Positions 21,071 to 48,357 of a DNA stretch of 57,105 bases are shown in pieces (within the stretch, counting starts at the first letter, position 1; the number at the start of each line of letters is the position of its first letter). Both the position numbers and the translations under genes were made by a program. The DNA lies in contig JBEKKX010000016.1 in the NCBI GenBank assembly GCA_050010515.1, positions 1 to 57,105 of the forward strand. Reading direction: 5' to 3'. Source of the DNA: Candidatus Bathyarchaeia archaeon. Lineage in GTDB: Archaea > Thermoproteota > Bathyarchaeia > Bathyarchaeales > Bathycorpusculaceae. Below the pieces are notes generated by a model. That model did not search any database. It had not been told where the DNA came from and was given only the letters and a program-made list of their open reading frames with translations.

Positions 21071-21184
21071 CTCTTTAAACGCTCGAAAGTTAAGTAATTG
21101 ATTGCTTGAACATCTTGGATTAACCGCAAATATTAAAGAAACATCCGCATAATAATGCAGACTATTACGTGTGGATGTGGTTTG

Positions 21185-24100
21185 ATGACGCAAACGGTTA
21201 CTTCTCAACCTATGAAGAGAGTTGAAGATTGGAAATCTCGATTAATCGACCTCTCAAAAAGAAACAACCTCCTATATTTCCATAAGGCAAAGCGTGGAAG
21301 CCTGCCTATTTCTCAACCTGACATGCAAGCAATTTTCAATGCTCTCGTGTTAAAGAAGCGTCGTTTAGAATTCTGGTTGCCTCCGGAAGAAACAATAAAG
21401 CCTGAAAGGTCAGAGAAGGCAAAAGGCAAAGTTAAAGCTAAAATAGCAAAAGCCAACGCAAAAGCCGATGTTAAAGAAATCGTTCCAGAAGAAACAAAGC
21501 AGCGCCCCACCGCAAATCAACTGGTCAGCGGAAGCTTAACTCGTGCTGATCTTGAAAGAAACCTCAAAAGATTGCAATGGCGCTCACTTCTGGATTACCG
21601 AGAACGCGGCGTTCGCATTCTGCATGCGGCTTTTGGCACCTTAAACTGGGTAGACTTGGAAACAAAAGAAAAAGTTCAGTCGCCCCTGATTCTTGTACCT
21701 TTAGAGTTAACACGGGATTCAATACGAAAACCCTACGCGATTGCAGTGCCGCCAGTTGAGGAAGAGGCTGTTTTAAACCCTGCATTGCAGGTTAAACTGA
21801 AAAACGACTACAAAATTGAATTGCCGCCTTTGCCAGAGGAATGGGAAAACCAAACCCTATCAGACTATTTCAACTTGGTCAATCAAGCTGTTGCTGAAAT
21901 GGGCTGGAAAGCAGAGCCATCAGTTGACCTGGGGCTTTTTTCATTCCAAAAACTAGTTATCTACAAAGACCTTGAAGCGAACGCTGATTTAGTTACACAG
22001 CACCCGATAATTCGGGCAATCGCGGGCATAAAAGAAGGCAACCTAATTTTAGACGGCTTGCCAGACGAGAAAGACGTCGACAAAATCGAGCTTCCAGAGA
22101 ATACCTATCAGGTCCTCGACGCAGACAGCAGCCAACGAGTCTCCATCGAATACGCCCTGCGTGGACAAAGCTTCGTCATGAAAGGTCCACCAGGCACAGG
22201 GAAAAGCCAAACTATCGCAAACATAATCGCAGAATGCATCGCTAAAGGAAAATCCGTGCTCTTCGTAAGCGACAAAATGGCAGCCCTCGAAGTGGTTTAT
22301 AAGCGGTTAAGCGAAGTTGGTTTAGCGCATTTCTGCCTTGAACTTCACAGCAGCAAAGCCAACAAGCAGCAAGTCGTAGCTGAACTCAAACGCAGCCTCG
22401 ACGAGAACCTTGTTCCACGTAAACTGCCGTCGGCTCATGAGTTCGAGCGGATGACTGAGTACCGTGAAGCATTAAATGGTTATGTTACCGCGTTGCATGA
22501 GAAACGCCCGTACTTGCAGAGAAGCGCTTACGAAGTTTTAAGTTTGATTTCAAGCCTTGAGCGGGTTCCGTTTGTTCCTGTTGGCTTAACTGAACTGGGA
22601 ACGTTGACTCCTCAGAAAATGCATGAACTTGAAGGGCTTGTTTCTCAACTAAGCAAGGTGTGGCAAGTTATAGAGGAACCAGACTTCCCATGGCTAGGAT
22701 ACCGCGCTAACACCTATAATCTTGAAATTCGCTCTGAAGTGTTAACAGCGCTTGAAAACATTAACGAAGCATTACACGACCTACAGCTAGAAACCGAAGA
22801 TTTTTCCGCCAAACTTGGAGTGTTTCTGCCTGAAACGTTTGCGCGGATAAAGTGGCTCCTTGAAGTAAGCAAGTTCCTTTATGAAAGCCCCAAGCCAGAA
22901 GCATACTGGCTGACCAACCCAGACATTGACAAACTATTAAGCGAAGCTAAAACTTACAATGACACTTGCGTCTGGATTAAGAACACGCGCGCCAGCCTCA
23001 TGGAGCGCTATAACCCGTCCTTGTTCACCTTAGTCCTTAACAGGTCAGCAGAGATGAAACAGGCTCTTGAAGCGCTAGGCAAGATGCTTCCAGCGGTAGG
23101 GTTGGAAGAAGGCGAATTTTTACAGAAACGAGAGAAACTCTTAGCCTTCGTAAAGAACACTCAGTTAGCCTCAAGGAAGTGGCGTGAAAACTCTCAAGCG
23201 CTCGCCCCACTGCTGGGGTTAGATAGCGATGGCTTGACGATTAAGCAACTAAAAGAATTATCCAGAATGGCATTGTTATGCTTCGCAGAGGACAAGCCTG
23301 AGCCGCAATGGTTTGATTCAGCATATTTTGAGCAAGTTCAAGAAATTGTGTCAAAAGCAAAACGGCTCTACCAAGACCACAACTTGCTAAAAAGCAGGTT
23401 AGACGAAACTTACAGCGACGGAATCTACGCCTTAGACCTTGACGAGCTCATAAGAAGATACAGTGGACCATACCAGAGCTCGCTAAAAATGTTCAATTCA
23501 ACTTATCGCAGTGACCAAAAACAAATTGCCAGATTAACTAACGACGGCAAAGTTCCAAAAAATGTACTAAATGACCTAATTGACGCGCGAAAAGTCAAAA
23601 AGCTACATGCCCAGATTGAGGAGTCAGCTGAAACAGTCCACAGCCTACTTGGGCACTTCTACCGCAAATCCAGAACAGACTTCCAAGGCGCAGAAAAAGC
23701 CATAGAACTAACAGCCGAAATCCGCAAGCTTTCATGGGCAACACAAATCCCAGAAACTCTCCTCAAACTAATCACTAACACATCCAGTCCATCACCCATG
23801 ATTAAGAATTTAGGCTTAGAACTTCAGGAGTCAGTTGATAGGTGGGAGCAGCTTGAAAAAGACTTAGAATCACTCATACCAGCAAGCATGCCTAAATCCG
23901 CTACCGCTATCACTCAAACGCCTCTGCCGCTGCTTGAGGAATGGGCGACCGAAACAGAAAAACAACTAAATCCACTGTGCGCACTGACAAAAGAGACACT
24001 AACAACATGCAAGCAAGAACCTCAAAGCTATAAGCAGCTTGTGGAAGACCTCAAAAACGCTGAAGACATAAGAAAGAAAGAAGCCGCCATAATAGGCGAA

Positions 24101-26848
24101 AAAGCCCAACTTCAAGCAAAATTCGGCTCACGCTTCAATGATCTGGAAACAAACTGGCAAGACATCCTAACTGTTCTCGAATGGACAAAAAAAGTCCAAG
24201 CTACATTCGCTGATATTCCAGTTCCCCAAGCCTTCGCAATTATTGCTGCCCAAGGACCAACTGTTGCACCATCAAGCACAGAACTAAACCAAAAATACGA
24301 CGTTTCATTAAAGGTTCTGTCTGATTTTGAAGCTCGCTTTGAAGCAGAAATGAAGTATCAAAACCAGAAGCTGAAGGAATTAGAAATCAAAGTAATCGGC
24401 GAAAGAATCAAAGCGCTTCGAGACCGCGTTGATGACCTGCAGGTTTGGATTGACTTCAAAGACATCAAAAACCGCTTTGCATTAAGAGGCTTAGACCAGT
24501 TCTTCAACCGTTTGGCAGAACAGCGGGTTCCAGCAGCCGACCTGGTTGATGTTTTCCGCAGAGGCGTCTACCAAGAATGGATAAACAATCTCTACAACGA
24601 AGACCAGAAGTTGGGCAGGTTCAGAAGGGAGAACCATGAGCAGTTAGTCGCTGACTTCATAAAACTAGACCAAGACCTCATTAAGCTAACATCCAGCATG
24701 GTTATTGAACAGGCAAACAGCCGAAAACCACAAGACATACTGGTTCAAGCAGCCGACTCCGAAGCTAACATTCTTCTCAAGGAAGCCGCAAAGAAGAGGC
24801 AGCTAATGCCCATTCGCACGTTACTGCAAAAGATTCCTAACCTGCTTGTTAAACTAAAGCCTTGCTTGCTGATGAGTCCCATAACGGTCAGTCAGTTCCT
24901 GCCTCCTGAAAGCAACAAGTTTGATTTAGTCTTGTTTGATGAGGCATCGCAGATTGTCCCTGAAGACGCCATCGGCGCAATTTACCGTGGAAAAACACTG
25001 GTTGTTGCAGGCGATAACAAACAGTTGCCGCCCACATCTTTCTTCCAGAAAAACCTAATTGACGACGTTGACTGGGACGAGTTAAGCGACGAGGACGTGG
25101 AAGTCTTCGACAGCATACTAGACGAGTGCTTAGGCATCGGGTTACCCGTTAAAACTTTGAAGTGGCATTACCGCAGCAGGCATGAAGACTTAATTGCGTT
25201 CTCAAACCACCGCTTCTACGACGACAACCTGATAACTTTCCCAGCTGCCAAAGCCCAAACCGACAGCTTAGGCGTAAAACTAGTCTACGTTCCTGACGGC
25301 ATCTATGACCGCGGCGGCCAAAGAAACAACCCCAAAGAAGCAGAAAAAGTAGCAGACCTCGTTTTCGAACACTTCCGCCTATACCCAAAGAAAACCTTAG
25401 GCGTTGTAACATTCAGCATAGCACAGATGGAAGCCGTTGAAGAAGCCATAGACCGCCGACTCAAAGAGCAACCGGACTTCGAGCAGTTCTTTAAAGAAGA
25501 CCGACTGGAAGGCTTTTTCGTCAAGAACTTAGAGAACGTGCAAGGCGACGAACGGGACGTTGTATTCTTCAGCGTCGGCTACGGTTACGACCAGCAGAAA
25601 CAAATGACAATGAACTTTGGTCCATTAAACAAACCAGGCGGCGAAAGACGCTTAAACGTTGCAGTCACCCGTGCCCGCGAAAAAGTGGTACTAATCACCT
25701 CGATTAAAGCTACTGATATTGACGCTGAAACTAAAGCAGTCGGCGTGCAAACCCTACGCTACTACCTTGACTATGCAGAGCATGGGCCTGAAACGTTGGA
25801 GTCAGTTAAGTCTAGAGAAGGTGAGTTCGAGTCAGCCTTAGACGAAGATGTGGCAGCGGAAATAAAAAAGATGGGCTATGAAATAGTTCCACAAGTCGGC
25901 TGTAGCGGTTACAGAATAGACATTGGCGTGGTCGACCCAGTTAACCCTGGAAGCTTCCTGCTAGGCGTAGAATGCGACGGCGCCACATACAAATCCAGCA
26001 GTAGCGCACGAGACAGAGACCGCCTCCGCGACCAAGTGCTAAGACAGTTAGGCTGGCGTATTCACCGTGTTTGGTCTCCAGCGTGGGTTGCTAGACGCGA
26101 CTCTGAAATCCGACGGTTAAGAGAAGCTCTTGAGCAAGCTCACAAGTTGCAGCTTGAAAAAGATGTTCAAAAACCAGTTATTGACGTAAAAGAGAGTATG
26201 GCTCCAAAGACTGACGTTCAAAAAATTCAGTTTGCAGGTATCGAAAAAATCGGTGTACCGTACAAAATTTACCCGCTTAAGGCAACATTTAATCCTTACA
26301 TTAAAGTTGCCACAGCTGACTCCACGTATGATTCGCGGCAGAAAAACGAGTTTCACTTTCCAGAAAACAGAGAAATGCAAACAAAGCTTCTCGCCGAACT
26401 AGTGGAGAAGGAGGGTCCGGTTCACTTTGACTATGCTGTTGAACGTTTAGCAGCCGCGTGGGGCGTCAAACAGGTAACACCGCAGATAAAGCATGCTGTA
26501 AAAGAAGCACTTAGCAACTTGCTAAGAGAACAAAAAGTAGTGATCAAAGGTAGTTTCCTCTGGCCGCCTGAACTCAAAGAAACACCAATCCGCGTTCCAG
26601 TGCAAGGTGTTCCTGAATCCAAACGGAAACCCGAGTATATTGCGCCTGAAGAAGTTGAATCCGCTATGAAGCTGGTTGCTCAATACGCTTTAGGCATAAG
26701 TGAAGATTCATTGATTGCTGAAACTGCAAAAGTGTTTGGGATTAACTATTCAGGCGAAGGAGCTAAAGAAGTGTTCTCTGAAATACTGAAGCGGCTGGTA
26801 AGAGACAGAAAACTCGTCTGCAAAGACGACGTCGTTACCGCTGCTTAA
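21185..26848 (+). CDS. DUF4011 / split SF1 helicase / Vsr-like PD-(D/E)xK nuclease / DUF3320-like multidomain protein
   Basis: WKSRLIDLSKRNNLL; DADSSQ, GPPGTGKSQTI, DEASQ, GDNKQLPP, WHYRS, ENVQGDERD, RRLNVAVTRAR; RIDIGV..GVECDG..RDRDRLR; C-terminal EGPVHFD wHTH. Confidence 0.9.
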   Translation: MTQTVTSQPMKRVEDWKSRLIDLSKRNNLLYFHKAKRGSLPISQPDMQAIFNALVLKKRRLEFWLPPEETIKPERSEKAKGKVKAKIAKANAKADVKEIVPEETKQRPTANQLVSGSLTRADLERNLKRLQWRSLLDYRERGVRILHAAFGTLNWVDLETKEKVQSPLILVPLELTRDSIRKPYAIAVPPVEEEAVLNPALQVKLKNDYKIELPPLPEEWENQTLSDYFNLVNQAVAEMGWKAEPSVDLGLFSFQKLVIYKDLEANADLVTQHPIIRAIAGIKEGNLILDGLPDEKDVDKIELPENTYQVLDADSSQRVSIEYALRGQSFVMKGPPGTGKSQTIANIIAECIAKGKSVLFVSDKMAALEVVYKRLSEVGLAHFCLELHSSKANKQQVVAELKRSLDENLVPRKLPSAHEFERMTEYREALNGYVTALHEKRPYLQRSAYEVLSLISSLERVPFVPVGLTELGTLTPQKMHELEGLVSQLSKVWQVIEEPDFPWLGYRANTYNLEIRSEVLTALENINEALHDLQLETEDFSAKLGVFLPETFARIKWLLEVSKFLYESPKPEAYWLTNPDIDKLLSEAKTYNDTCVWIKNTRASLMERYNPSLFTLVLNRSAEMKQALEALGKMLPAVGLEEGEFLQKREKLLAFVKNTQLASRKWRENSQALAPLLGLDSDGLTIKQLKELSRMALLCFAEDKPEPQWFDSAYFEQVQEIVSKAKRLYQDHNLLKSRLDETYSDGIYALDLDELIRRYSGPYQSSLKMFNSTYRSDQKQIARLTNDGKVPKNVLNDLIDARKVKKLHAQIEESAETVHSLLGHFYRKSRTDFQGAEKAIELTAEIRKLSWATQIPETLLKLITNTSSPSPMIKNLGLELQESVDRWEQLEKDLESLIPASMPKSATAITQTPLPLLEEWATETEKQLNPLCALTKETLTTCKQEPQSYKQLVEDLKNAEDIRKKEAAIIGEKAQLQAKFGSRFNDLETNWQDILTVLEWTKKVQATFADIPVPQAFAIIAAQGPTVAPSSTELNQKYDVSLKVLSDFEARFEAEMKYQNQKLKELEIKVIGERIKALRDRVDDLQVWIDFKDIKNRFALRGLDQFFNRLAEQRVPAADLVDVFRRGVYQEWINNLYNEDQKLGRFRRENHEQLVADFIKLDQDLIKLTSSMVIEQANSRKPQDILVQAADSEANILLKEAAKKRQLMPIRTLLQKIPNLLVKLKPCLLMSPITVSQFLPPESNKFDLVLFDEASQIVPEDAIGAIYRGKTLVVAGDNKQLPPTSFFQKNLIDDVDWDELSDEDVEVFDSILDECLGIGLPVKTLKWHYRSRHEDLIAFSNHRFYDDNLITFPAAKAQTDSLGVKLVYVPDGIYDRGGQRNNPKEAEKVADLVFEHFRLYPKKTLGVVTFSIAQMEAVEEAIDRRLKEQPDFEQFFKEDRLEGFFVKNLENVQGDERDVVFFSVGYGYDQQKQMTMNFGPLNKPGGERRLNVAVTRAREKVVLITSIKATDIDAETKAVGVQTLRYYLDYAEHGPETLESVKSREGEFESALDEDVAAEIKKMGYEIVPQVGCSGYRIDIGVVDPVNPGSFLLGVECDGATYKSSSSARDRDRLRDQVLRQLGWRIHRVWSPAWVARRDSEIRRLREALEQAHKLQLEKDVQKPVIDVKESMAPKTDVQKIQFAGIEKIGVPYKIYPLKATFNPYIKVATADSTYDSRQKNEFHFPENREMQTKLLAELVEKEGPVHFDYAVERLAAAWGVKQVTPQIKHAVKEALSNLLREQKVVIKGSFLWPPELKETPIRVPVQGVPESKRKPEYIAPEEVESAMKLVAQYALGISEDSLIAETAKVFGINYSGEGAKEVFSEILKRLVRDRKLVCKDDVVTAA

Positions 26849-30054: not shown

Positions 30055-30975
30055 TTATGTCACTATTATTTCTTTGATGAATTTGACCCAGTATTGTCCC
30101 CATTTGTATTGTTCAGTGGGGAGGAACAGTCTGAACGGTCCGCCTTGATCTAGCGGTAAAGCTTTACCATTCTCCATGTAACCGAGCTGCATTTGGGATT
30201 CTTGGATTTGTGCGATCGTGAAGTTCTGTTCATAACCGTCTATTGCGATAAAAGTCACCATTTCTGCAGTGTTAGACATTTTTGCGGCGTTAAGCACGGA
30301 CATCATTGAAGCTCCTGTCCAATCTGAGGTTCTGTTGGGCTCGTCTCCTGGAACGAATTCTGCATGCACTGTTGTCTGTTGGAAGTCTGTCACGTTCTCT
30401 CCGGTGATTGTTAACGGATTCGACACATCTCCGGAGACAGACACTGTCCATAATCCAATATTGACTTCAGCCACGCTCTCCACTTGATATTGATCTGAGA
30501 AATATGGTGCGATCAATCTTACCGGCCCGCCGGTTTCATTAGTCATCCACTGACCGTTCTTCACAAAGGCCAACATGATCCTGCTGTTGTTCTGGCCGCG
30601 TGGGAAGGAGGTGCTGTTCCACGCCTGAAAAGCGGTTAGCGTTGCTTCATCTCCATTCGCTGAGATTATGTTGATTGTCCCTGCGTCCCAATCCATGCCG
30701 CTTCTTTCGCAGAAGTCTAAGAGGGTTACTCCTTTGTAGGTGGCGTTCTCACCGTCTATTACGGTGTTGACAGTGGTCAAAGGCATTTGAGTCATTTCTT
30801 TAAGCGTCATAGTTACTTCTTGCTTTACTTCACCTGAAACCTTAATCTGCCATTGTGGCGGTTCCCCTGAAGGCAACTGGCTTGCGCTAGGCTTCATTTG
30901 GAAATAGACCACAAATATCGCTACAACAATTATGACTAAGACAGAGATTGCGAGTATTTTCGTTCTTTTTTGCAT
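30055..30975 (-). CDS. Membrane-anchored protein with two molybdopterin-oxidoreductase (sulfite oxidase/MsrP)-like domains
   Basis: N-terminal TM; two repeats of W.I.VSG.V..(Y/W).G..(NG/DGY)..GGP.RL..P. Start at ATG 30975. Confidence 0.8.
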   Translation of the reverse strand: MQKRTKILAISVLVIIVVAIFVVYFQMKPSASQLPSGEPPQWQIKVSGEVKQEVTMTLKEMTQMPLTTVNTVIDGENATYKGVTLLDFCERSGMDWDAGTINIISANGDEATLTAFQAWNSTSFPRGQNNSRIMLAFVKNGQWMTNETGGPVRLIAPYFSDQYQVESVAEVNIGLWTVSVSGDVSNPLTITGENVTDFQQTTVHAEFVPGDEPNRTSDWTGASMMSVLNAAKMSNTAEMVTFIAIDGYEQNFTIAQIQESQMQLGYMENGKALPLDQGGPFRLFLPTEQYKWGQYWVKFIKEIIVT

Positions 30976-31154
30976 GATTTCTGTTTCCCCTATTGACAAC
31001 CGCTTAGCGCACGAGCCTTTCAGCGGTTTTATGCTCAATGCAACGTTTTCTTTCGAGTTTTATTCTTTCTTGTTTGAGCAAACACTTTACTTATGAATTG
31101 CGAAATGCTTTTAAATACATATCGATGATATTGCGATAGAAAGGTGAACTTGAA

Positions 31155-33053
31155 ATGAGTAATACTTCAGTAACAAAAAGCAAACTCAACAAAAAACTAG
31201 TAGCTATCCTAATAATAGTAATAATAGCAGTCGCCGCAGTCGCTGTCTGGCAGTTATACCCCAAAAAGAGCACAACTTCAAAATTGGTTCTTCCCCCGAT
31301 GACCCTAACCGTCATAGGTGCCAACGGACAAACAGTAGTGTTAAACTCAACTAGCATGGCAGCCCTCTCATCCTACACAGCAAAAGGCGGCTTCGAAAGC
31401 AGCGGCGGAGCAATCGAAGAAGTCGGCAACTACACCGGAGTTCCAATCCAAACCATTCTCAACTTGGTAGGAGGAATCACCAGCGACGAAACTTTGACCG
31501 CGACAGGCTCCGACGGATACTCCATGGTCTTCACCTACGCCCAAGTTAATGGCCAAGGTTTCACTACCTACGATCCTGTTACAGGAAGCGAAGTGCAGTC
31601 AAATCAAACCCTAACTATGGTTATCAGTTACTTTCAAAACGGCGCCCCCATAGCATCCGACATCGCACCCTTACGACTTTGTATTCTGGGATCAGAAGGC
31701 TTGCTCACAGAAGGGCACTACTGGGTTAGCTTATTAGACAAATTGCAGGTGACCGGCAACGTTCAAGATTGGAACGTGACCGTTAACGCCACGACATCCT
31801 TGGTTATGGACCGCCAAGCATTTACCGCTGACCTTAACCACTTTCCGTTAAACTGGACTGATGCTAACGGCAACGTCTGGACAGGCGATGCGCTCTGGCG
31901 CTGGGTATCATGGAGCAACGTCAACGGAGGCGTCAGCAACGCTTCATTGAACGCGGGCTACTCAGTCAAAGTAATAGGTGGCGACGGCTATTCAGCCACT
32001 TTCGAAGGCAGCCAAGTAAACAATAATAACAACATCATCGTGGCAGCGGAACTAAACGGTGCAATCCTATCAGCCCCATACTGGCCTCTGACCATAGTCG
32101 GCTCAGACGTTACCACACAAGAAATGGTCAAAAACATCGTACAAATAGATATAATACTAAACTCGCCATCGCCCACATCCACAGCAACGCCACAAGATTA
32201 TAGCTTGATCGTAAATGGCACAAATGCAGTAACAATGTCTCGTGCAACATTTGAATCCCAAGTGAGCGCAAGCAGCGTAAGTTATACAGCCTCCGGCACT
32301 ACATGGACAGGAACTCCGCTTCACAGGTTGGTGGTATGGGCCCAGAGCAACGGCGTCATCGACAGCAGCTTATTAGCTTCAGGTTATGTCGTTGAGGTGA
32401 TAGGGTCAGACGGCTACACCTCCTACCTAAACGATAGCAGTGTTAACATGAACACACATATTATGGTTGCCAATCAAGCTAACGGTGCTGCTCTCTCAGG
32501 ATCAAACTGGCCACTCACTCTCACAGGCTCAGACTTGACAACGCAACAAATGGTCCAAGGCATAACGCAGATCAAGATAATCCCTCTTCAGGACCTTAAC
32601 CTGACAATTATAGGTCCCACCGGCACGCAAGTCGTCTTACACTCAAATGACCTCTTAGCCCTAAGCAGTTACACCGCGAACGGAGGAACCCGATCGAACG
32701 GTGGAACACTTGCAAACTTCGGCTCTTACACCGGTGTACCGATCCTGACACTCTGCAACCTAGTCGGCGGCTTAACCAGCAGCAATACAATCACAGTCAC
32801 AGGCTCTGACGGTTACCAAAGTACCTATTCATATGCTCAAGCAAACGGACAAGGGATACTCATGTACAATTCAGCGGGAACTCAAGTGAGCGCCACACAG
32901 CCTTTAACCATGATCGTTGCCTACTTCCTGAACGGCGCAAACATACCTTCTGGAACAGGGCCTCTGCGAGCAATGGTTGTCGGACCTGACGGATTGTACA
33001 TGACTGGCTCCTATAGCGCGCAATTGGTGGTAAAAATTCAGATCAATAGCTAA
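31155..33053 (+). CDS. Exported protein with four molybdopterin-oxidoreductase-like repeats (A-B-B-A)
   Basis: N-terminal TM; YTGVPI..GSDGY..PLR repeats 1 and 4; WTG..G.DGY..WPLT..GSD repeats 2 and 3. Confidence 0.8.
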   Translation: MSNTSVTKSKLNKKLVAILIIVIIAVAAVAVWQLYPKKSTTSKLVLPPMTLTVIGANGQTVVLNSTSMAALSSYTAKGGFESSGGAIEEVGNYTGVPIQTILNLVGGITSDETLTATGSDGYSMVFTYAQVNGQGFTTYDPVTGSEVQSNQTLTMVISYFQNGAPIASDIAPLRLCILGSEGLLTEGHYWVSLLDKLQVTGNVQDWNVTVNATTSLVMDRQAFTADLNHFPLNWTDANGNVWTGDALWRWVSWSNVNGGVSNASLNAGYSVKVIGGDGYSATFEGSQVNNNNNIIVAAELNGAILSAPYWPLTIVGSDVTTQEMVKNIVQIDIILNSPSPTSTATPQDYSLIVNGTNAVTMSRATFESQVSASSVSYTASGTTWTGTPLHRLVVWAQSNGVIDSSLLASGYVVEVIGSDGYTSYLNDSSVNMNTHIMVANQANGAALSGSNWPLTLTGSDLTTQQMVQGITQIKIIPLQDLNLTIIGPTGTQVVLHSNDLLALSSYTANGGTRSNGGTLANFGSYTGVPILTLCNLVGGLTSSNTITVTGSDGYQSTYSYAQANGQGILMYNSAGTQVSATQPLTMIVAYFLNGANIPSGTGPLRAMVVGPDGLYMTGSYSAQLVVKIQINS

Positions 33054-33092
33054 ACAAGACTTTAGAAAACAATCAGAGGACACTGAACTGTA

Positions 33093-34181
33093 ATGAGAAA
33101 AGCATACAAAGTCTTTGTAGTCATTGCAGCTCTAATCCTCTTTTTATCTACCTATTTTTTTGTAACAAACTATGTTTATGTTAATCCTTCAAAACAAACA
33201 TTGACGGTTATGGTTGCGACCAGCCTCGAGTATCCAATGGCGAAGGTCCAAGCCGATTTTGAGAAATTGCATCCTAACGTTGATGTTGAAGTCCAAGGTC
33301 ACGGGAGCATTCAGGCTATTAGGCAGGTGACCGAGTTGGGCATGAAGGCCGATGTACTCATGGTGGCCGATTACTCGCTCATTCCGACAATGATGTACTC
33401 GACGAAAATGCCTAACTCGGATGAAAACTACGCCGACTATTACGTGCGTTTTGCAACAAATAGTTTAGTATTGGCATATACTAACCAAAGCCGATACGCC
33501 AGCGAGATTAACTCTGAAAATTGGTATTCGATCTTGTCTCAGCCAGATGTGAAAATCGGAATGGCTAACCCTCAGTTGGACTCGCTAGGTTACAGAACCT
33601 TAGCCGCGATTCAACTAGCTCAAGACTATTACAATAGTTCGGACCTGTTTCATAACCTCATCACATCTAACTTCAACCCACCCATAAATTCTGTTCCCGA
33701 CGGATCCAACTACACTATAGTTATACCTGTAGTGCAGCAACCAGTAGGCGACAAAATAACTCTCACAGCAAGCGAAGTCGACATAATCGCGCTGCTGCAG
33801 ACGGGCAATTTAGACTACGGGTTTATTTATTTGAGCAACGCGAAACAATATGGTTTTAACTACGTGGAACTTCCCAATGAAATCAACCTTGGATCGTCTC
33901 AGTACCAAGATAACTATGAACGAGTATATTTCGCCTTTGACCACCAGAGGTTCGAAACGGTGAACCTGGACAGAAGCGCCCAAACAATTTACTATGGGTT
34001 AACGATTCCTAATAACGCGCCTAATCCAAAATTGGCGGCTGAATTTGTCCAATTTATTCTAACTGGAGGAGGAGCGACCGATTTTGCAAACTCTTATCAG
34101 CCAGTTTTCGCCCCGTCCTACACTGACAACCTTCATGCTCTCCCTGAAAGTCTGCAACTTCAAGTTCAACAAGAGCCCTAA
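33093..34181 (+). CDS. wtpA: Tungstate/molybdate ABC transporter substrate-binding protein
   Basis: ATSL, HGSIQAIRQVTELG..DVLMVADYSLI, D.LGYR, SEVD, IYYGLTIP. Confidence 0.9.
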   Translation: MRKAYKVFVVIAALILFLSTYFFVTNYVYVNPSKQTLTVMVATSLEYPMAKVQADFEKLHPNVDVEVQGHGSIQAIRQVTELGMKADVLMVADYSLIPTMMYSTKMPNSDENYADYYVRFATNSLVLAYTNQSRYASEINSENWYSILSQPDVKIGMANPQLDSLGYRTLAAIQLAQDYYNSSDLFHNLITSNFNPPINSVPDGSNYTIVIPVVQQPVGDKITLTASEVDIIALLQTGNLDYGFIYLSNAKQYGFNYVELPNEINLGSSQYQDNYERVYFAFDHQRFETVNLDRSAQTIYYGLTIPNNAPNPKLAAEFVQFILTGGGATDFANSYQPVFAPSYTDNLHALPESLQLQVQQEP

Positions 34182-34229
34182 CCTCCAAACGCATTTATAT
34201 CAAAAACATCAAAAAATGACCAGAGGACC

Positions 34230-35033
34230 GTGAAAAATATGAGTTGGATAAAGCGGCAATCACCATTCCATGTCATTTTATTCGTGTTAGGACTATGCCT
34301 GGTTCTTTTCCTCATGGTGCCTATACTTGGAACCTTGGCAGATTCCGCCCCCGGCCTTTTGGGTGCGTTTACGGATTACAGGACGCTCAACGCCATATTC
34401 CTCAGCTTTTACTGCGCCTTTCTAGCCACAGTTTTCTTGTTTTTTCTGGGGATTCCTTTCGCTTATTTGTTCGTTCGCAAAGATTTTCCAGGCAAGAAGG
34501 TGCTTGATTCACTATTAGATATTCCGCTTTTGATTCCTCATAACGCCGCGGGTATCGCTCTTCTCACGATTCTCGGAACAAGCTACCCAATAGGTGCAGC
34601 TTTTTCTGTCATAGGCATTCGGTTCGTGGACACCGTTTGGGGCATAATAATTGCCATGGCCTTTGTCAGCGCACCGTTCATGGTTAGAGGTGCCCAAGAA
34701 GCGTTTATCTCTGTAAGCCCTGAAATGGAGAAAGCGGGCAGAAGCCTAGGTGCCACCAGATTCAAAGTTTTCTCAAACGTGACTTTTCCTCTGGCATCAA
34801 GAGGTATTCTGACAGGATGCCTTCTGGCTTGGGCGCGTTCTGTTAGCGAATTCGGTGCAGTGGTGTTGATCGCATACTATCCTAAGACTGCGCCCGTTCT
34901 TCTTTACGACGCTTTCGTTACCGGGGGCTTGAATGCGGCTCTTCCTATTGAGGGTGTTCTGATAATTCTCTCTATAGTGCTGCTAGTCATTTTTAGACTC
35001 TTTGTGTCGAAACCAACGAAACCAATGTATTGA
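34230..35033 (+). CDS. wtpB: Tungstate/molybdate ABC permease
   Basis: DIPLLIPHNAAGIALL, EKAGRSLGA, WARSVSEFGAV..AYYP. Confidence 0.9.
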   Translation: MKNMSWIKRQSPFHVILFVLGLCLVLFLMVPILGTLADSAPGLLGAFTDYRTLNAIFLSFYCAFLATVFLFFLGIPFAYLFVRKDFPGKKVLDSLLDIPLLIPHNAAGIALLTILGTSYPIGAAFSVIGIRFVDTVWGIIIAMAFVSAPFMVRGAQEAFISVSPEMEKAGRSLGATRFKVFSNVTFPLASRGILTGCLLAWARSVSEFGAVVLIAYYPKTAPVLLYDAFVTGGLNAALPIEGVLIILSIVLLVIFRLFVSKPTKPMY

Positions 35034-35052
35034 CAGGAAAAGGGAAAACACG

Positions 35053-36120
35053 TTGTGGCTTAAACTTGCGGAAATCTCGAAAACTTGGGGAAAATTCCAG
35101 CTAAAAGCAATCAACATGTCAATCGAAGACGGCGAGTATTTTGTGATTCTTGGTCCCACAGGCGCGGGAAAGACCCTTCTTCTTGAAACAATCATGGGTT
35201 TTTACAAGCCCGATAAGGGCGAGATTATCCTTGACGGCGAGAACATAACCGACGTGCCACCAGAAAAAAGAAAAATAGGCTACGTCCCACAAAAATGTGC
35301 GCTTTTTCCTCATATGACAGTACGACAAAACATTGAATTTGGACTAAAGATGCAAGGCAAAGAAAAAACCGAACGATACAAGATAGCGACTGGGGTCCTC
35401 GATTTAATAGGTTTGAAATCCTTAGAAAATCGTCACCCCGCTGACCTCAGTGGCGGAGAAAAACAGAAAGTGGCATTAGCAAGAGTCCTCGCTTTTCAAC
35501 CTAAAACAATCCTGTTAGACGAACCCCTCACAGCGTTGGACCCTGAAACCAACAAAGCCCTGAAAAACGAGCTTAGAAGAATTCACAAAGAAGGAAGAAC
35601 GTTGATTCACGTCACCCACGACCAGCTCGAAGGCTTCAGCTTGGGAGACAATGTGGCAATGATGAAATCAGGCGAGATAGTGCAGACTGGAAAAGCAAAA
35701 GAAATCTACGCAAACCCCCAAAACGAGTTCGTCGCAAGATTCCTAGGATACGAAAACATTTTCAATGCCCAAACAACCGCCACAGAAGGCGCCGTATCCG
35801 TGATGAATATTGCCGGCGTCACATTGAGAATGTCGGGTCCAGTAAACAACCTCAAAAGCACGATCACTGTGCGCCCCGAAGACATAACAGTACTCCCCTA
35901 CCCCGCCAACAATGCCGACACAAACTTTCTGAAAGGAAAAATCACCGAGTGCATCGATCAAGGTCCAGTAGTGGCAATAACAGTCGACGCTGGAATATGC
36001 CTCAAAGCCGTAATGACCAAGAGTGCATTCCTCGAAAAAAACCTCGAAACTGGCCAAGATGCCTGGGTCGCCTTCAAGTATGCATCTGTCAGAGCAATAA
36101 TTCACCCTGCTCCCGCCTAA
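35053..36120 (+). CDS. wtpC: Tungstate/molybdate ABC ATPase with TOBE domain
   Basis: GPTGAGKT, LSGGEKQ, LLDEP, HVTHD and C-terminal TOBE. Start taken at TTG 35053. Confidence 0.9.
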   Translation: MWLKLAEISKTWGKFQLKAINMSIEDGEYFVILGPTGAGKTLLLETIMGFYKPDKGEIILDGENITDVPPEKRKIGYVPQKCALFPHMTVRQNIEFGLKMQGKEKTERYKIATGVLDLIGLKSLENRHPADLSGGEKQKVALARVLAFQPKTILLDEPLTALDPETNKALKNELRRIHKEGRTLIHVTHDQLEGFSLGDNVAMMKSGEIVQTGKAKEIYANPQNEFVARFLGYENIFNAQTTATEGAVSVMNIAGVTLRMSGPVNNLKSTITVRPEDITVLPYPANNADTNFLKGKITECIDQGPVVAITVDAGICLKAVMTKSAFLEKNLETGQDAWVAFKYASVRAIIHPAPA

Positions 36121-39584: not shown

Positions 39585-40142
39585 ATGCTTCTCAACAAAA
39601 AACATAAGCTTTCATGCAAAGTCTGGATAGAATACAAAGATAAACCTCTAATTGGCAAAGGTGGAGCAGAAATTCTAGAAGCCATCGATAAGGAAAACTC
39701 GATTTCTAAAGCTGCAGAAACCTTAGGAATGTCCTACCGTTACGTTTGGAATTATCTGCATGATATTCAAAAGACGCTGGAAGAACCAATAGTCGAAACT
39801 TTCAAAGGCGGAAAATCCGGAGGCGGAGGCGCAAAGTTAACGGATTTAGGCAGAAGTTTGCTTGGGGAATATAAGCAAGTGGAGAGCTACCTCGGCAAGG
39901 TTTTGTCGAATTCAGGCAGTTTGGAGGTGAAAGGTTTGAAGTTAAGTGCAAGGAACCGTTTTAAAGGAAAAGTTGTGAGTGTTGAAAAAGGTGTTATTAC
40001 AGCCAAAGTTAAGGTTGAAGTAAAAGTGCCCGTGACTGTTACGGCGGTTATAACTAAGGAAGCCGTTGAAGATTTAGATATTAAAGTTGGCGACGAAGTA
40101 GAGGCAATCGTGAAATCGACGGAAGTAATGATTGCCAAATAA
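39585..40142 (+). CDS. modE: ModE-family molybdate/tungstate-responsive regulator (HTH + TOBE)
   Basis: SISKAAETLGMSYRYVW, GGKSGGGAKLT, LSARNRFKG..AVITKEAVEDL..AIVKSTEV. Confidence 0.9.
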   Translation: MLLNKKHKLSCKVWIEYKDKPLIGKGGAEILEAIDKENSISKAAETLGMSYRYVWNYLHDIQKTLEEPIVETFKGGKSGGGGAKLTDLGRSLLGEYKQVESYLGKVLSNSGSLEVKGLKLSARNRFKGKVVSVEKGVITAKVKVEVKVPVTVTAVITKEAVEDLDIKVGDEVEAIVKSTEVMIAK

Positions 40143-40484: not shown

Positions 40485-41039
40485 TTACTCTACTACGTAC
40501 CTGTAAGTAATGTGTACGCCTGCCGTTGTGCTTTTCCTGGTGATTTTCAGTATATCGCCTGGTTTGGCGCCGATTGCTTTAACCGCTGGGTCGCCTGATT
40601 CTATCTGCGGAATCTGGTAGGGCTTAACTCTGTATTGGGCGAGAAGCTGGTTCTTTTCTTTTTCGTTTAGGATTTCGTGGAGGGGAACTAGTGCATGCTC
40701 GAAAATGTCGAAAACTGGGAAAGACTTTGGCAGTAATTCAACTTGTTTCTTCTTTGCGCCAAGTTTAACAGCGTGTGTGTAGCGTCCTTCAGTGACTACT
40801 ATCGCGCGGTCGATTTCTTTTTCTTTCATCACTTTGTAGAGTGTGTTCATGGCTGCTATGCCGACGGTTGCTTCACCTAAAATGCACCAGACGATTGCTT
40901 TCTCTTTATCCTGTGGAATGTCGATGATATAGCTTATTTCGCCATCATATTTTTCTTTTTCAAGCAGTTTGTATTTTCTCAGTTTGATAAGGACTTCTGC
41001 CTTGCGTTCTTCAATTGTTTCTGTTTTAGTGCTCAACAT
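40485..41039 (-). CDS. rpo5: RNA polymerase subunit Rpo5/RpoH with an extra N-terminal Rpb5-jaw-like domain
   Basis: C-terminal ~75 aa are canonical (HALVPLHEIL..IPQIESGDPAVKAIGAKPGDILKITRKSTTAG..YRYVVE), preceded by a ~105-aa alpha/beta domain. Confidence 0.9.
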   Translation of the reverse strand: MLSTKTETIEERKAEVLIKLRKYKLLEKEKYDGEISYIIDIPQDKEKAIVWCILGEATVGIAAMNTLYKVMKEKEIDRAIVVTEGRYTHAVKLGAKKKQVELLPKSFPVFDIFEHALVPLHEILNEKEKNQLLAQYRVKPYQIPQIESGDPAVKAIGAKPGDILKITRKSTTAGVHITYRYVVE

Positions 41040-41639: not shown

Positions 41640-43289
41640 TCAGATTTTTAGCCGAAGTAATTTAGATAGCAACGTGTTGAATCGCGCCCCAGTGAATGCT
41701 AACCCAAAATTTCTGGGGAAGTTGTGGTTTGAATGTCGGGTGGGTGTTGGCCTGGTTGTTGGAACTGGTGTTGATGTTGGAGTTGGCGTTTGTGTTGGAG
41801 TCGGTGCCTTTGTCGGTGATGGTGTTGGATGTGCAGTTGACGTAGGGGTTACGACTGGTGTAGGTACTGGCGTAGGCTGCGGGGTCGGTGCAGGCGTCGG
41901 TGTTGGCTTCGCTGTAGGTGTTGGTGTTGGAGTTGGCGTCGCTGTGGGTCTTGGAGTTGGTGTTGGTGTCGCTGTTGGTGTTGGTGTGGGGGTTGTAGTG
42001 ACTCCTGTGTAAGCGTTGATGTATTCTTGTCCCATTGTGTTTGGCGTGTAGCCGCTTGTTAATAATTCTTCGCCGTCGTAAGTTGGGCCTAGTCCGCTGC
42101 TGCTTAACCAGTAGTAAGCTCCTGCGCCGATTCCCAGCGTGTCTTGGGCTTGAAGCAGCGTCTTCCACCAGTTATAATCATTTTTGACGTTGCTTGACGA
42201 TGAAAGACATGAGCCTTCCTCGTTGATTACTAATGGTGCGTTGACTCCCATGGTTTCTTCGAGTAGTTGGAGTGCGTTTTCTATTGATGTGGCGCCTTCA
42301 AACTGTGATGGATTGTTCCAGTAGGATGTTAGGTCGGAGGGTGCGTAGTAGTAGAAGTGTGTGGTGTACACTATGTTTGTTGGGTTAGATAGTGCAGTGT
42401 TTATTTGTGATGCCCAGCTTAGGTTTGAGCCCCAATCGTTGGGTTCCCATCCCTGTTGCCATTGCATCATTATCAGGTTTGTGGATCCTGTTGCCCTGAT
42501 TGCGTTGTACATTGTTGTCAAATAAGTCTTGTAGCCTTGGGGTATCGTGTTGCTGCTGGAGCCTGTGGTTGGTTCGTTCCAGGCTTCAAAGATAACGTTC
42601 GGGTAAGCTTTAAGCGCGTTAGCCATTGATGTCCAGTACTGGGTCCAGAAGTTTTGTTCTGTTAAGCCTGTGCTTGCAATGAAGCTTTTGCCTGCTGAGT
42701 CCCAATTACTCATCATTGGGAGCCCTTGCGCAGTGCTTTGGTCGGGTGTTAGGTAGGGGTCTGAACTGAACGAGCTTGAGCAGGCTGTCAGTTGGTAGGG
42801 TACTATATCTAGGTAGATGCCGTATTGTTCTGCTTCGCTGGCTAGGGTTTCAACGTAGATTTGCACGTTTTCACTGTTTGCGGTGCCGTCTGCACCGTTG
42901 AGCCACCACCATTCTGGGTAGATGAAGACGCGTATCATGTTAACGTTCCAGGTTGTTGATAGTTCCTGGAGCGTTTGGGTTACGGACGTTGACGATGCCG
43001 ATTGCCATTGGTCGCTCCAGCTGTCGCTGCCTCCTTGTCCCCAGAAAATCAGGTCCGGCGTCATTCCAGCTACGCCTATGCCGCGTAGATAGACTGCGTT
43101 GTTGTTTGAGTCAAGTATCTGGTCTCCCGAAGTATGCAGTGCAAGCGTTGTTGTGGCTTGAACTCCGTTTGATGCGAAAACTGTCAGCATGCTTATGACG
43201 AAGATTGCGATGATGCATAGACCCGCTGGTTTTGCGAGCTTCCTGAAGTTTATGGAGTGCAGTATGTTCCCTAAGTTGTTTGTTTTCAT
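41640..43289 (-). CDS. Exported glycoside hydrolase family 5 (cellulase-like) with Pro/Thr linker
   Basis: Signal/TM helix; [24 protein letters not shown] (acid/base), YTTHFY, INEEG (nucleophile). Confidence 0.85.
41740..42005 (-). repeat. Low-complexity (TP)n linker repeats
   Basis: GTTGGT/GTTGGA hexamer repeats encoding [10 protein letters not shown]. Confidence 0.85.
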
Positions 43290-43351
43290 TTCTCTCTCTC
43301 TTCCTGAATTCTGAAAGCCTACTATCGGTTGATTCTATATTAGAGGTTTTT

Positions 43352-43433
43352 GCAAAGTCAATTCATATCATTAGTTAACTTTGGCGAAAGTTTTGCGAAG
43401 TCAACTTGACAAAGTTTGCCAAGTTAACTTTGC
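43352..43433. promoter_or_regulatory. Array of palindromic operator-like sites (consensus GCAAAGTTAACTTTGC) upstream of GH5
   Basis: Imperfect copies at 43352, 43369, 43395 and 43418. Confidence 0.55.
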
Positions 43434-43705
43434 ATGCATTAAGCCATTCTCATTTTCCGCTTTTATCCCTGCGTTGCCAAGAACAACCGACAAAATATTC
43501 AACGTCAAAATGCGAACTTTACTCAAGAACTAAGGCTTGGAAAGAGTGACAGCAGCCAGAAAATTCAACAACCCACGCTTAAAAAAATTACGTTCATAGC
43601 CTTCTGCCGCTGGAAAGACAAAAAGCTCTATAAAAAAGGAAATAACTACTTACGGTTCGTCCAAAAAGACTGGATGTTCGGTGGAACAGTTTGGTTAATG
43701 ATGGT

Positions 43706-45790
43706 TTATCCAGTAGTATACGGTTTGCCATCAACTATGTTTGACGTGTCAATGTTATTTGGAAAAGCGGGTTGCACTATAATGTTGTATACGTTGCTAT
43801 TGATGTCGTTGCCTTTGAGCGTATTGCCGAATGAATTATCCAGCACTATGCCTTCATAATTATTATTGATAATGTTGCTGGTTACTATAGAGTTTTTAAC
43901 GTAAGCGAGAAGCAAACCCTCATAATTATCAGATAAATTCAGGTTTTGCACCGTGGCGTCAGTGCAGTTTATCAGTGCAATGAATCCGGCGTTGGATGGA
44001 GCCGTCATATTGCTTTTGTTTACCCAATAGTAAATTGGCTTTCCATTAACGCTGTTCGAAGTATCAACGTTGTTTATGTAATTCGTGATGTTGCTTGCTG
44101 AGACGCCGAAATTGAACTTGTTGTTAGACATAGCGTTGTTTCTGAGTACGTTGTTAAATGAATCATTTAAGAAAATTCCGTTATAGCTGTTGGTGACTGT
44201 GTTTCCTATTAGGCTACAGTTATATGCGTTATCGAGAAGGATTCCTTCGCCCGTTCCAGATAAGAAGTTGCCGCCGTTTTGCACTGTGAAGCCAGTCACG
44301 GTTACGTTGTCGCTGATTATGGTTAGTGCCGTGCCGTTTTTTGCGCCATCTATTATTGTAGTATCTTTATTTTGGCTGATTAATGAGACAGGTTTGGTCA
44401 TTACGATATTTTCTTGGTATGTTCCAGGCTTAACTAAAATGGTGTCTCCTGCGTAGGTTGCGAAGGAAGCTATTGCCTCTTGGATACTGTTGTATCCTAA
44501 TCCATTGTTAAGGTCTATTACTGGATAGTTCGTGTTGGTTTCGAAACTATTGTATCCTAATCCAATGTTAAGGTCTATTATTGGATAATTGATGTTTGTT
44601 TCGAAGTCCTTCGGCCAGTAAAGGATTTCGCTGTATTTGCTTTGGATTGAACTCTGGAACTGTGGGTCGCTATAGACTATATCTATGCTTGACTTGTACT
44701 GGTTAATGAGGCTTGTAACGTCGCTGTACATTTTTTGAGTCCAATAGTCCGCTTGGTGATACTGCCACACAGAATCATCAGGGCTACGGAATCCAAAGCC
44801 ATAATCTTGCGGAAGAACCACTGCGTTGTCTGCCTTGAGACTGCCATGTTTGTCAGGGTTTTGCTGCACGTAACTCCAGAACTCCTTTAGGGCGTTGAAA
44901 TGGTCTTGCGTTAATGTAGTGCTTGTGTAATTTTGTGATGAGTCGTAGACAGCTATGAAGCTTGCGCCTGAATCGTAAGCTAAAACCATATCATTGTACA
45001 TTTGAGCTCCCGACTCCAAGTACGGCGGCTGATTGTATGTCCAAGTTATTATGGCACCCCAATTTTTGTTTTGGGCTTCCGCCGCGCCTCTAACCAGAGC
45101 TATTTGTAACGGTCTGCTGTTATTCCAGCCAAACTGGGCTAAAACTGTATCATACCCAAGTTCATAGTCAAACCAGTATAAGGCATAGTCTGAAGTAAAC
45201 AATGAAGAACCTAAGCTATGCATCAAGTTGGCGGCTTCTGGTACGCCGTCACCTTGTGTCCATATCCGAAAGTACCAATTAGCGTAATCCAGGTAACTAG
45301 TCGGTGTAGTTGTAGCATTGAAAATGTTATTAGAAGTCAAATTGATGGTCTCGTCTAGTTGGCTTCCAGCCGGTTCATCATAAAAATAAATTCCCAGTAA
45401 CTTGTCGCCATATCGCTCTTTTGCTGTTGTGAACCATATGGATGGAGTGTAACCGATGCTTGTGCCATTGTTTATGTCTTGATAGTAAGCGGGCATGAAA
45501 TACATGCCTGCGTTATAGGCGTAGTCGCATGTCTCGTTAAGAAATGCCTCACCGCTTAGAATAAGCGGTGAGGCGATAATGAAAAGATTAGTGTAATTCT
45601 TAACTTTATCAATCAATGCTTTGCAGTCACTAACGGTGCTATTCCACCCTGTTTCAATTCCTACGAAGAAAGGCTCAGATGAACCTGAGGCTTGCTTTGC
45701 TGGAACACGCAAGTTATCCAAAGCTACAAAGAAAGATACAACTAATAGCACGACTAGCACCGTAGCTATCAGGATCTTTCTGAGCTTCAA
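43706..45790 (-). CDS. Exported protein: TIM-barrel-like N-terminal domain plus CASH/NosD beta-helix
   Basis: N-terminal TM; GIYFYDEP, FTSDYALYWFDY; YNSIQEAI..GDTILVKPGTYQE; Asn-rich beta-helix repeats. Confidence 0.8.
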   Translation of the reverse strand: MKLRKILIATVLVVLLVVSFFVALDNLRVPAKQASGSSEPFFVGIETGWNSTVSDCKALIDKVKNYTNLFIIASPLILSGEAFLNETCDYAYNAGMYFMPAYYQDINNGTSIGYTPSIWFTTAKERYGDKLLGIYFYDEPAGSQLDETINLTSNNIFNATTTPTSYLDYANWYFRIWTQGDGVPEAANLMHSLGSSLFTSDYALYWFDYELGYDTVLAQFGWNNSRPLQIALVRGAAEAQNKNWGAIITWTYNQPPYLESGAQMYNDMVLAYDSGASFIAVYDSSQNYTSTTLTQDHFNALKEFWSYVQQNPDKHGSLKADNAVVLPQDYGFGFRSPDDSVWQYHQADYWTQKMYSDVTSLINQYKSSIDIVYSDPQFQSSIQSKYSEILYWPKDFETNINYPIIDLNIGLGYNSFETNTNYPVIDLNNGLGYNSIQEAIASFATYAGDTILVKPGTYQENIVMTKPVSLISQNKDTTIIDGAKNGTALTIISDNVTVTGFTVQNGGNFLSGTGEGILLDNAYNCSLIGNTVTNSYNGIFLNDSFNNVLRNNAMSNNKFNFGVSASNITNYINNVDTSNSVNGKPIYYWVNKSNMTAPSNAGFIALINCTDATVQNLNLSDNYEGLLLAYVKNSIVTSNIINNNYEGIVLDNSFGNTLKGNDINSNVYNIIVQPAFPNNIDTSNIVDGKPYTTG
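44486..44605 (-). repeat. In-frame 60-bp tandem duplication
   Basis: FETNINYPIIDLNIGLGYNS / FETNTNYPVIDLNNGLGYNS at the domain junction. Confidence 0.9.
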
Positions 45791-48323: not shown

Positions 48324-48357
48324 TGTAATCCTGATATTCATGTAATCCTGATATTCA
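48324..48357. repeat. Perfect 17-bp direct repeat in the amt promoter region
   Basis: TGTAATCCTGATATTCA x2. Confidence 0.85.

Follow-up and report, generated by a model that had tools for sequence, protein, structure and literature searches.

Cysteine-less sulfite-oxidase-fold surface proteins tied to tungstate uptake in Bathyarchaeia and other anaerobes

Why would an archaeon place genes for exported proteins with the fold of sulfite oxidase (SUOX), a molybdoenzyme, beside an operon for tungstate uptake? The question is raised by a 57,105-nt stretch of DNA from a Candidatus Bathyarchaeia archaeon (positions 1 to 57,105 of contig JBEKKX010000016.1, assembly GCA_050010515.1), to which we refer as “the window”. 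In the window, two divergently transcribed genes, p1 and p2, encode membrane-anchored proteins with six SUOX-like repeats between them, and p2 is followed by wtpABC. The metals concerned, tungsten (W) and molybdenum (Mo), limit key anaerobic processes, i.e., aldehyde oxidation, formate/CO2 reduction, and methane formation and oxidation. To our knowledge, W/Mo uptake has so far been described only as a three-part ABC importer. A full-text literature search returned no description of SUOX-fold genes tied to wtpABC, nor of exported SUOX-fold genes behind a molybdenum cofactor (Moco)/W riboswitch.

Here, we propose that p1 and p2 are non-catalytic, Sec-exported, tethered surface proteins, and that their modules, which resemble the protein PruR, are the extracellular ligand-binding parts of a dedicated W/Mo acquisition system. 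We give this reading a probability of about 0.6. The tie of the repeat genes to tungstate uptake is strongly supported, by linkage across phyla, a dedicated clade of the binding protein WtpA, and predicted Mo/W-type regulation. The non-catalytic character of the proteins is supported by the missing cysteine segment, the lack of a twin-arginine translocation (Tat) motif, and a closest solved relative, PruR, that is itself Cys-less. An accessory, non-catalytic role in W/Mo acquisition best explains why Cys-less proteins of this fold are exported by what looks like the Sec route, resemble PruR, are inherited together with a single WtpA clade across phyla, and are predicted to be under cofactor-responsive control. 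The features of the locus are as follows.

30055-31038, minus strand: p1, an exported, membrane-anchored protein with two Cys-less SUOX-fold repeats (D1, D2)
30901-30957, minus strand: N-terminal transmembrane anchor of p1, a hydrophobic run at residues 28-46 of the 327-aa open reading frame (ORF); predicted helix 2-26 in the trimmed model
30463-30873, minus strand: p1 repeat D1, with a profile match to D2 and a fold match to SorT
30058-30462, minus strand: p1 repeat D2, which keeps Asp-Gly-Tyr (D-G-Y; D246, Y248) and W292/W296 and has a fold match to PruR
31101-31124, plus strand: inverted repeat of operator type, CGAAATG-N10-CATATCG, around the TATA-like TTTTAAATA and 30 nt ahead of the start codon of p2
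31155-33053, plus strand: p2, 632 aa, an exported, membrane-anchored protein with four repeats, A1-B1-B2-A2
31287-31763, plus strand: p2 repeat A1 (residues 45-203), of the type that other phyla encode as a single-domain gene ahead of wtpA, carrying D120-G121-Y122 and L183-LTEGHYW-190
31764-32174, plus strand: p2 repeat B1 (residues 204-340), with a Trp-rich helix; D-G-Y kept, C-terminal Trp lost
32175-32594, plus strand: p2 repeat B2 (residues 341-480), with a Pro/Ser/Thr linker at its start
32595-33050, plus strand: p2 repeat A2 (residues 481-632), in which the LLTEGHYW motif is lost
33093-34181, plus strand: wtpA, membrane-anchored tungstate/molybdate-binding protein of the repeat-linked clade
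34230-35033, plus strand: wtpB, permease; best NCBIfam match NF040839, 255.3 bits, under the cut-off of 340
35002-36120, plus strand: wtpC, ATPase with ABC_tran and TOBE domains; best NCBIfam match NF040840, 368.7 bits, under the cut-off of 440
39585-40142, plus strand: ModE-like regulator, helix-turn-helix (HTH) plus Mop/TOBE (PF00126, PF03459; TIGR00637, TIGR00638)

Linkage of the repeat genes to one clade of WtpA

An earlier reading of the window, which we call the original prediction, described p1 and p2 as divergent, membrane-anchored, exported proteins, with p2 39 bp upstream of wtpA and modE ~3.5 kb beyond wtpC. This layout is confirmed: the two ORFs lie on opposite strands, both products have N-terminal hydrophobic anchors, the gap between p2 and wtpA (33054-33092) is 39 nt, and the ModE-like gene begins 3465 nt after wtpC. 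The 327-aa ORF of p1 starts at a TTG, and an inner ATG at 30975 is its likely start. Judged by sequence, the genes after p2 form a WtpABC-type operon, encoding a binding protein, a permease, and an ATPase with a TOBE domain. The window WtpA scores 304.7 bits against TIGR03730 in NCBIfam, over the cut-off of 242.75, and 249 bits (E 4.8e-73) against MA_0280 in the PDB, with E-values for the solved WtpA/ModA proteins ranging from 1e-53 to 5e-73. It belongs to the same family as the archaeal WtpABC/ModA-WtpA importers (MA_0280, MJ1186, AF_0094, PF0080). Asp163 and Glu228 of the window protein, which we take to be its metal ligands, line up with acidic positions that are retained in the solved WtpA/ModA proteins compared.

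The association with wtpA recurs far beyond the window. A motif scan of one genome per species, with A-type and B-type motifs used for retrieval, yielded 34 loci. At 32 of them, wtpA comes directly after an A-type or p2-type gene and shares its strand; the contigs of the remaining two (L008, L013) end before the position of wtpA. All 13 Bathyarchaeia-type loci also have a p1 homologue. The other 21, from anaerobic methanotrophic archaea (ANME-1 and ANME-2), other Methanobacteriota, two Dehalococcoidales, and one Peptococcaceae record, have instead a single-domain A gene of ~180-200 aa that often overlaps wtpA by 4 nt. These single-domain proteins share 37-46% identity across phyla and are the most constant element beside wtpA. 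In an independent scan of metagenome contigs, wtpA was found downstream at 53 of 78 loci (one being the window's own contig), at positions from a 9-nt overlap to 2052 nt after the match. Twelve of the 78 have <400 nt of downstream sequence, leaving 66 informative loci, with wtpA at 53. Linkage to wtp, mod, or tup genes, a check that the original prediction had proposed for itself, is thus found in both scans, and it extends to a tup-like gene: at metagenome locus L134 (8-3054), an A-type gene is followed by a gene for a TupA-like binding protein (NF041772, 199 bits, under cut-off) and a ModE-domain gene. The pairing is therefore not limited to WtpA. Fusions of an A repeat to WtpA were absent from 363 collected proteins and from nine more found in a search for longer proteins, which is weak evidence.

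Within Bathyarchaeia, we surveyed 151 sampled genomes for WtpA (E <= 1e-20) and A-type proteins (E <= 1e-10). WtpA occurs in 32 genomes and an A-type match in eight; repeat genes lie directly upstream of wtpA in six of the 32 (G000, G007, G093, G108, G147, and G135). We then compared WtpA proteins from loci with and without repeat genes in a tree of 51 sequences. The 35 linked proteins comprise that of the window, 30 from genome loci, and four from the class survey; the 16 unlinked proteins are 15 from Bathyarchaeia and the second WtpA of L021. Loci with a broken wtpA (L009, L010, L056) and those whose contigs end before wtpA (L008, L013) were omitted. All 35 linked proteins fall on one side of a branch with an SH-aLRT support of 99, and all 16 unlinked proteins fall on the other. 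The “unlinked” label of the L021 protein is debatable, since its gene shares a cluster with repeat genes, which it precedes. An additional conserved loop, in which R286 and F287 are invariant, marks the linked clade; the unlinked clade and MA_0280 lack it. The window WtpA, while of the same family as MA_0280, differs from it in both clade and loop. At the three repeat-linked loci with a broken gene (L009, L010, and L056, the last from G135), wtpA is in pieces or has an in-frame TGA; these cases may be pseudogenes or assembly errors.

The repeat family itself is large. Searching 1.84 billion representative proteins with the A profile gave 1128 matches at E <= 1e-3; tightening to <= 1e-10 left 590, and to <= 1e-30, 205. 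Many of the matches are multi-repeat proteins, the largest number of stretches being 10. Every carrier seen belongs to the archaea, Bacillota, or Dehalococcoidales, and the domains that co-occur with the repeats are SLH, CARDB, Big_2, Big_5, and dockerin. Homologues of p1 form 115 clusters, and the Protein Atlas returned only “hypothetical” and PF00174 clusters. Homologues bear the names of Bathyarchaeia metagenome-assembled genomes, and the window stretch was found in peat and wetland metagenome runs, with no RNA run among the 22 listed.

A second exported protein of the A family, X270, precedes the single A gene and matches the A profile at a probability of 98.2% (hhalign). We considered it as a p1-like protein and rejected this assignment, since its match to p1 reached a probability of only 5%; it is A-like instead. 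X270 (L014-L034; e.g., L016 7752-8567) is always just upstream of the single A gene. Its His and Cys residues in HYYHQGPVF, LCWY, and QHF are invariant, and it is anchored at the C-terminus, by a PGF-CTERM motif in ANME. Further upstream are genes for Ig-like surface proteins and for multi-repeat ones of ~1100 aa, which in the Peptococcaceae locus include SLH and CARDB domains.

Fold and cleft of the repeats

The six SUOX-like repeats of the original prediction (two in p1, and four in p2 in the order A-B-B-A) are borne out by several comparisons. Pfam detects two PF00174 stretches in p1 (117.8 bits; cut-off, 24) and no match over cut-off in p2, even at an E-value of 10. Within p2, A1 and A2 are 50% identical, and B1 and B2 are 45% identical. 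Using profiles built from 21 p2 and 24 p1 homologues, all five repeat types (A1, A2, B, D1, D2) are linked pairwise in profile-profile comparison at 90.7-100% probability, e.g., 96.9% for B and A2 (E 2e-10), 95.9% for B and D2, 98.8% for A1 and D2, and 98.2% for D1 and D2 (hhalign). All six repeats are mutually homologous.

Predicted structures, likewise suggested by the original prediction, place the repeats in the SUOX fold. The AlphaFold models have a mean pLDDT of 86.0 for p2 (pTM 0.47) and 86.1 for p1 (pTM 0.80), and they match SUOX enzymes and PruR at Z 14-18. D2 matches SoxC and SorA at Z 18 (root-mean-square deviation 2.0, 129-131 residues aligned) and PruR at Z 17.7-17.8 (7kos/7kou, 129 of 146-147 residues aligned). 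D1 (residues 37-175 of the p1 model) matches SorT at Z 17.1. For p2, A1 (residues 45-225) matches SoxC (Z 15.5) as well as chicken sulfite oxidase (Z 15.2), and A2 (residues 481-631) matches PruR 7kom at Z 15.2, with 125 of 134 residues aligned. The only fold match of B1 is 9a64_A (Z 10.4), so the assignment of the B repeats, the best-conserved portion of p2, leans mainly on profile comparison.

The repeats share with SUOX molybdoenzymes (sulfite oxidase, SorA, SorT, SoxC, and YedY/MsrP) both the fold, at the Z-scores given above, and the C-terminal motifs NG..L, P(L/F)R, and G..W.K. They differ in lacking the Cys, the dimerisation domain, the Tat motif, and a haem partner, and in having a shorter hairpin. 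Each of the six segments before the (Y/W)xG motifs is present in the sequence and free of Cys, as originally described. This extends to the families: no alignment column of the 21 p2 homologues is at least 50% Cys, and the sole such column among the 24 p1 homologues (17 of 24) falls after the YxG motif, not before it. A Cys aligned at the metal site, which together with oxidoreductase activity would have counted against the original prediction, is not conserved in either family. The repeats, 130-160 residues long overall, span 131-134 residues where the aligned stretch of SorA spans 162, i.e., they are ~30 residues shorter. Such a shortening fits deletion of the hairpin that bears the Cys, which has also been described in PruR (PMC11194511).

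The route of export points the same way. An RRx-hydrophobic (Tat) motif is found in none of 21 p2 homologues, none of 24 p1 homologues, one of 13 A-type single-domain proteins, and none of nine X270 proteins, and all of the proteins checked have an N-terminal hydrophobic anchor. Exported SUOX enzymes generally receive Moco in the cytoplasm and leave it by Tat. If this holds for the fold in general, the lack of a Tat motif means that the repeat proteins would contain no cytoplasmically inserted Moco. The absence of a haem partner, also part of the original prediction, agrees with a Pfam scan of the adjacent ORFs, in which no haem or other redox partner was found.

In the models, the closest solved relative of the modules is PruR, which covers almost the whole domain at Z 15-18. 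PruR is an exported, Cys-less, truncated SUOX-fold protein that binds a pterin: tetrahydromonapterin sits between Tyr104 and Trp160, Asn102 hydrogen-bonds the ligand, a Pro-Trp motif stands where the Cys would be, and the protein acts on DcpA, a membrane protein encoded directly downstream (PMC11194511). The authors considered the truncated cleft too short for Moco (PMC11194511). In PruR groups C and D, Asp replaces Asn102, according to a second report (PMC13259868). Like PruR of Agrobacterium, Vibrio, and Klebsiella (PDB 7kos, 7kou, 7kom, 7kp2, 7rkb), which has one truncated SUOX fold of ~130-150 residues, the modules described here are exported, have neither a dimerisation domain nor a Mo-ligating Cys, have a putative cleft motif Asn/Asp-x-Tyr, and are encoded directly upstream of a membrane-bound partner or presumed partner. 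That partner differs, being the cyclic di-GMP enzyme DcpA, a GGDEF/EAL membrane protein of a bicistronic operon, for PruR and presumably the WtpABC transporter here. Moreover, PruR is a single domain of Proteobacteria, whereas the modules here are repeated and anchored to the membrane or cell wall in archaea and monoderm anaerobes; they lack the Pro-Trp motif, and the A type has its own LLTEGHYW insertion.

The presumed cleft residues are unevenly conserved. In A-type repeats, D-G-Y is invariant and the Trp of H-Y/F-W nearly so, the conserved cleft-side motifs being GGFF, DGY, PLR, and LLTEGHYW. The invariant columns of D2 include D246, Y248, W292, and W296. Sequence similarity to PruR was detected only for a paralogue on contig C10 of the window genome (PruR 7kom, E 1.7e-5; 7kos, 0.005, the best PDB sequence matches); the A-type profile did not retrieve PruR. 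In this alignment, L-N102-D-Y104 of PruR corresponds to S-D-G-Y of the paralogue.

The C10 paralogue is a Cys-less, anchored SUOX-fold protein of 167 aa (5278-5781, within locus L036 2955-6786 of genome G000). Its gene overlaps one for a PF09819 membrane protein resembling energy-coupling factor S components (5768-6352), and a ModE-repressor-domain gene, two mobB genes, and one mobA-like gene lie alongside. The two overlapping genes may constitute a separate pterin or Mo/W-related uptake pair. On contig C8 of the same genome (L035 5342-6885), a single A-type protein of 209 aa has a CNVCG insertion and no wtpA nearby; its gene adjoins that of a 305-aa PF00174 protein with a Cys before the WTG motif and a C-terminal anchor.

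Regulation, metal demand, and other neighbours

In bacteria, the whole operon can be preceded by the Moco/W riboswitch RF01055, which occurs once at L030 (84.6 bits) and in tandem at L024 (74.3 and 83.1 bits). These operons resemble the known riboswitch-controlled Mo/W uptake operons in starting with one or two RF01055 elements. No RF01055 was found in the window or at L016, L023, L127, L131, or L134. The archaeal window thus differs from the riboswitch-controlled operons, and a protein operator is suggested instead. The inverted repeat ahead of p2 is kept at L001-L007 and L009-L012, with the perfect form CGTTATG-N9-CATAACG at L009 and L011, and at L002, L006, and L007 it recurs ahead of a gene for an exported phosphoesterase. 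The motif has 16 matches in 224 kb of 18 related loci, compared to 0.055 in shuffled sequences, a significant excess. In the window genome alone, its two loci are not significant, ~0.9 being expected from base composition. The ModE-like protein encoded at 39585-40142 is a candidate reader of this operator. From these predicted elements, i.e., riboswitches in bacteria and an operator-like repeat with a nearby ModE-like gene in Bathyarchaeia, the gene set would be under Mo/W-type control.

The only other candidate operator site of the window genome is a perfect palindrome, CGTTATG-N10-CATAACG, on contig C36 (L058 ~2888), with the half-sites of the p2 operator at L009 and L011. It lies between an operon for an aldehyde ferredoxin oxidoreductase (AOR) and an Fe-S protein and a ThiS/MoaD-like plus radical-SAM gene pair. 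As a possible regulon site, this palindrome is only a lead. As to metal demand, the genome has one wtpA and four genes of the AOR family, and PF00384 finds no match in it.

An exported calcineurin-like phosphoesterase recurs at these loci (L002 6680-7807, L003 6649-7860, L007 6527-7666, L016 4948-6222). It resembles purple acid phosphatases in ANME-1, and in Bathyarchaeia its gene lies between p1 and p2; it is missing from this position in the window, with a homologue on contig C9 of the same genome. Elsewhere in the window are a gene for a 184-aa protein with an RpoH/Rpb5 C-terminal domain fused to an N-terminal Mrr_cat/restriction-endonuclease-like domain (40485-41039, minus strand), a gene for a 1897-aa protein with DUF4011, AAA_11/AAA_12 helicase, MTES_1575 nuclease, and DUF3320 domains (21155-26848, plus strand), and, at 41640-49769, a GH5 cellulase-like gene and genes for a NosD/beta-helix surface protein, an FMN reductase, and two ammonium transporters in tandem.

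Candidate functions and their meaning

If p1 and p2 act as the binding parts of a W/Mo acquisition system, the operon would be turned on when cofactor is scarce. A1 and D2, with their presumed PruR-type cleft residues (Asp-Gly-Tyr plus a C-terminal Trp), would capture W/Mo species at the cell surface, whether as the free oxyanion or bound to a pterin or other organic compound. The modules would then hand tungstate to the membrane-anchored WtpA, which may dock via its clade-specific loop, and WtpBC would import it. The B repeats and A2 are probably spacers or a scaffold.

Several observations weigh against this reading. Retrieved by A-type and B-type motifs, the loci do not represent wtpA loci at large, and genomes that are related do not count as independent cases. 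Among the 66 informative metagenome loci, i.e., those with at least 400 nt downstream, 13 have no wtpA in the available DNA. Six of these (L075, L090, L109, L127, L131, L134) were scanned with Pfam, and in three of them other Mo/W partners speak for the reading: the TupA-like pairing at L134 described above and, at L127 and L131, ArsR-HTH and PBP_like regulators upstream, with another PF00174 gene downstream. A-type and PF00174 paralogues occur away from wtpA in the window genome (contigs C8 and C5), and the B repeats and A2 lack the cleft Trp. The conserved Asp-Gly-Tyr and Trp, the latter mapped by position, would suit a pterin better than an oxyanion. Finally, 26 of the 32 WtpA-bearing Bathyarchaeia genomes have no repeat genes. 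With repeat genes in only six of the 32, the module is an optional add-on and not a required feeder, and WtpABC works without it. The original prediction had cast the proteins as non-catalytic binders of tungstate, molybdate, or intact pterin cofactor that feed WtpABC. Its tie to tungstate uptake stands, on linkage, clade, and regulation, as does the non-catalytic character, on Cys, Tat, and PruR. As feeders of WtpABC, the proteins would be optional, and intact Moco is an unlikely ligand by analogy, given the short cleft of PruR-type domains (PMC11194511).

In a different proposal, the modules are PruR-like signal receptors that bind an extracellular pterin, dock in this state on WtpA or WtpB, and gate or tune transport, thereby controlling import instead of collecting the metal. 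The precedent is close: PruR is the nearest solved relative over the whole domain and acts on a membrane protein encoded directly downstream (PMC11194511), and the putative pterin-contacting Asn/Asp-x-Tyr is conserved, with the Asp variant reported in groups C and D (PMC13259868). We nevertheless consider a receptor unlikely. The Pro-Trp motif of PruR is absent, and the Moco riboswitch already provides regulation. Proteins with up to 10 stretches, some of them with SLH, CARDB, dockerin, or PGF-CTERM, are easier to reconcile with a surface layer for capture or scaffolding than with a sensor that acts one to one. The same surface domains (SLH, CARDB, Big_2, Big_5, and the PGF-CTERM motif) would be expected of purely structural proteins, in which a degenerate fold serves as a building block that anchors or spaces WtpA in the S-layer space of cells without an outer membrane. 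Consistent with this, the carriers seen are all archaea, Bacillota, or Dehalococcoidales, and the B repeats are the best conserved in p2 yet lack the cleft Trp. A structural role is rather improbable in our view, because the ~190-aa single A proteins keep GGFF, DGY, PLR, and LLTEGHYW across phyla at 37-46% identity, which is unexpected of a mere spacer.

The SUOX fold is otherwise catalytic, and the recurrence of exported calcineurin-like phosphoesterases (L002, L003, L007, L016) makes extracellular chemistry plausible. The repeat proteins might be real enzymes that bind a cofactor without Cys and transform extracellular Mo/W or sulfur species, e.g., thiotungstate, before uptake. Of the readings weighed here, this has the least in its favour and is very improbable: the hairpin with the Cys has been lost, export of a cofactor-loaded protein would call for a Tat motif that is absent, no haem or redox partner is encoded among the neighbouring ORFs scanned, and the PruR authors describe the truncated cleft as too short for Moco (PMC11194511).

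The proposal of non-catalytic binding modules for W/Mo acquisition can be taken further, tentatively and with considerable doubt, to a horizontally mobile, cofactor-regulated extracellular apparatus for tungsten harvesting in anaerobes that lack an outer membrane. Its module arrays would capture bound W/Mo and release tungstate to the co-evolved WtpA clade, with the exported phosphoesterase helping at many loci. The ligands would be environmental debris of pterin cofactors, thio-oxyanions, or metal complexed by organic matter. If true, the role of this outer layer in acquisition would parallel that of the siderophore receptors for iron.

Whatever the modules bind, the data point to a fourth, extracellular layer of W/Mo uptake that travels with one WtpA clade in Bathyarchaeia, methane-oxidising archaea, Dehalococcoidales, and Peptococcaceae and is linked to cofactor-sensing control elements. 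The single-domain A proteins, at ~190 aa, offer a directly testable handle on both ligand and WtpA binding. The recently recognised class of cofactor-less SUOX-fold binders, represented by PruR in proteobacterial signalling, would thereby come to include proteins that help to supply archaea and monoderm bacteria with trace metals.

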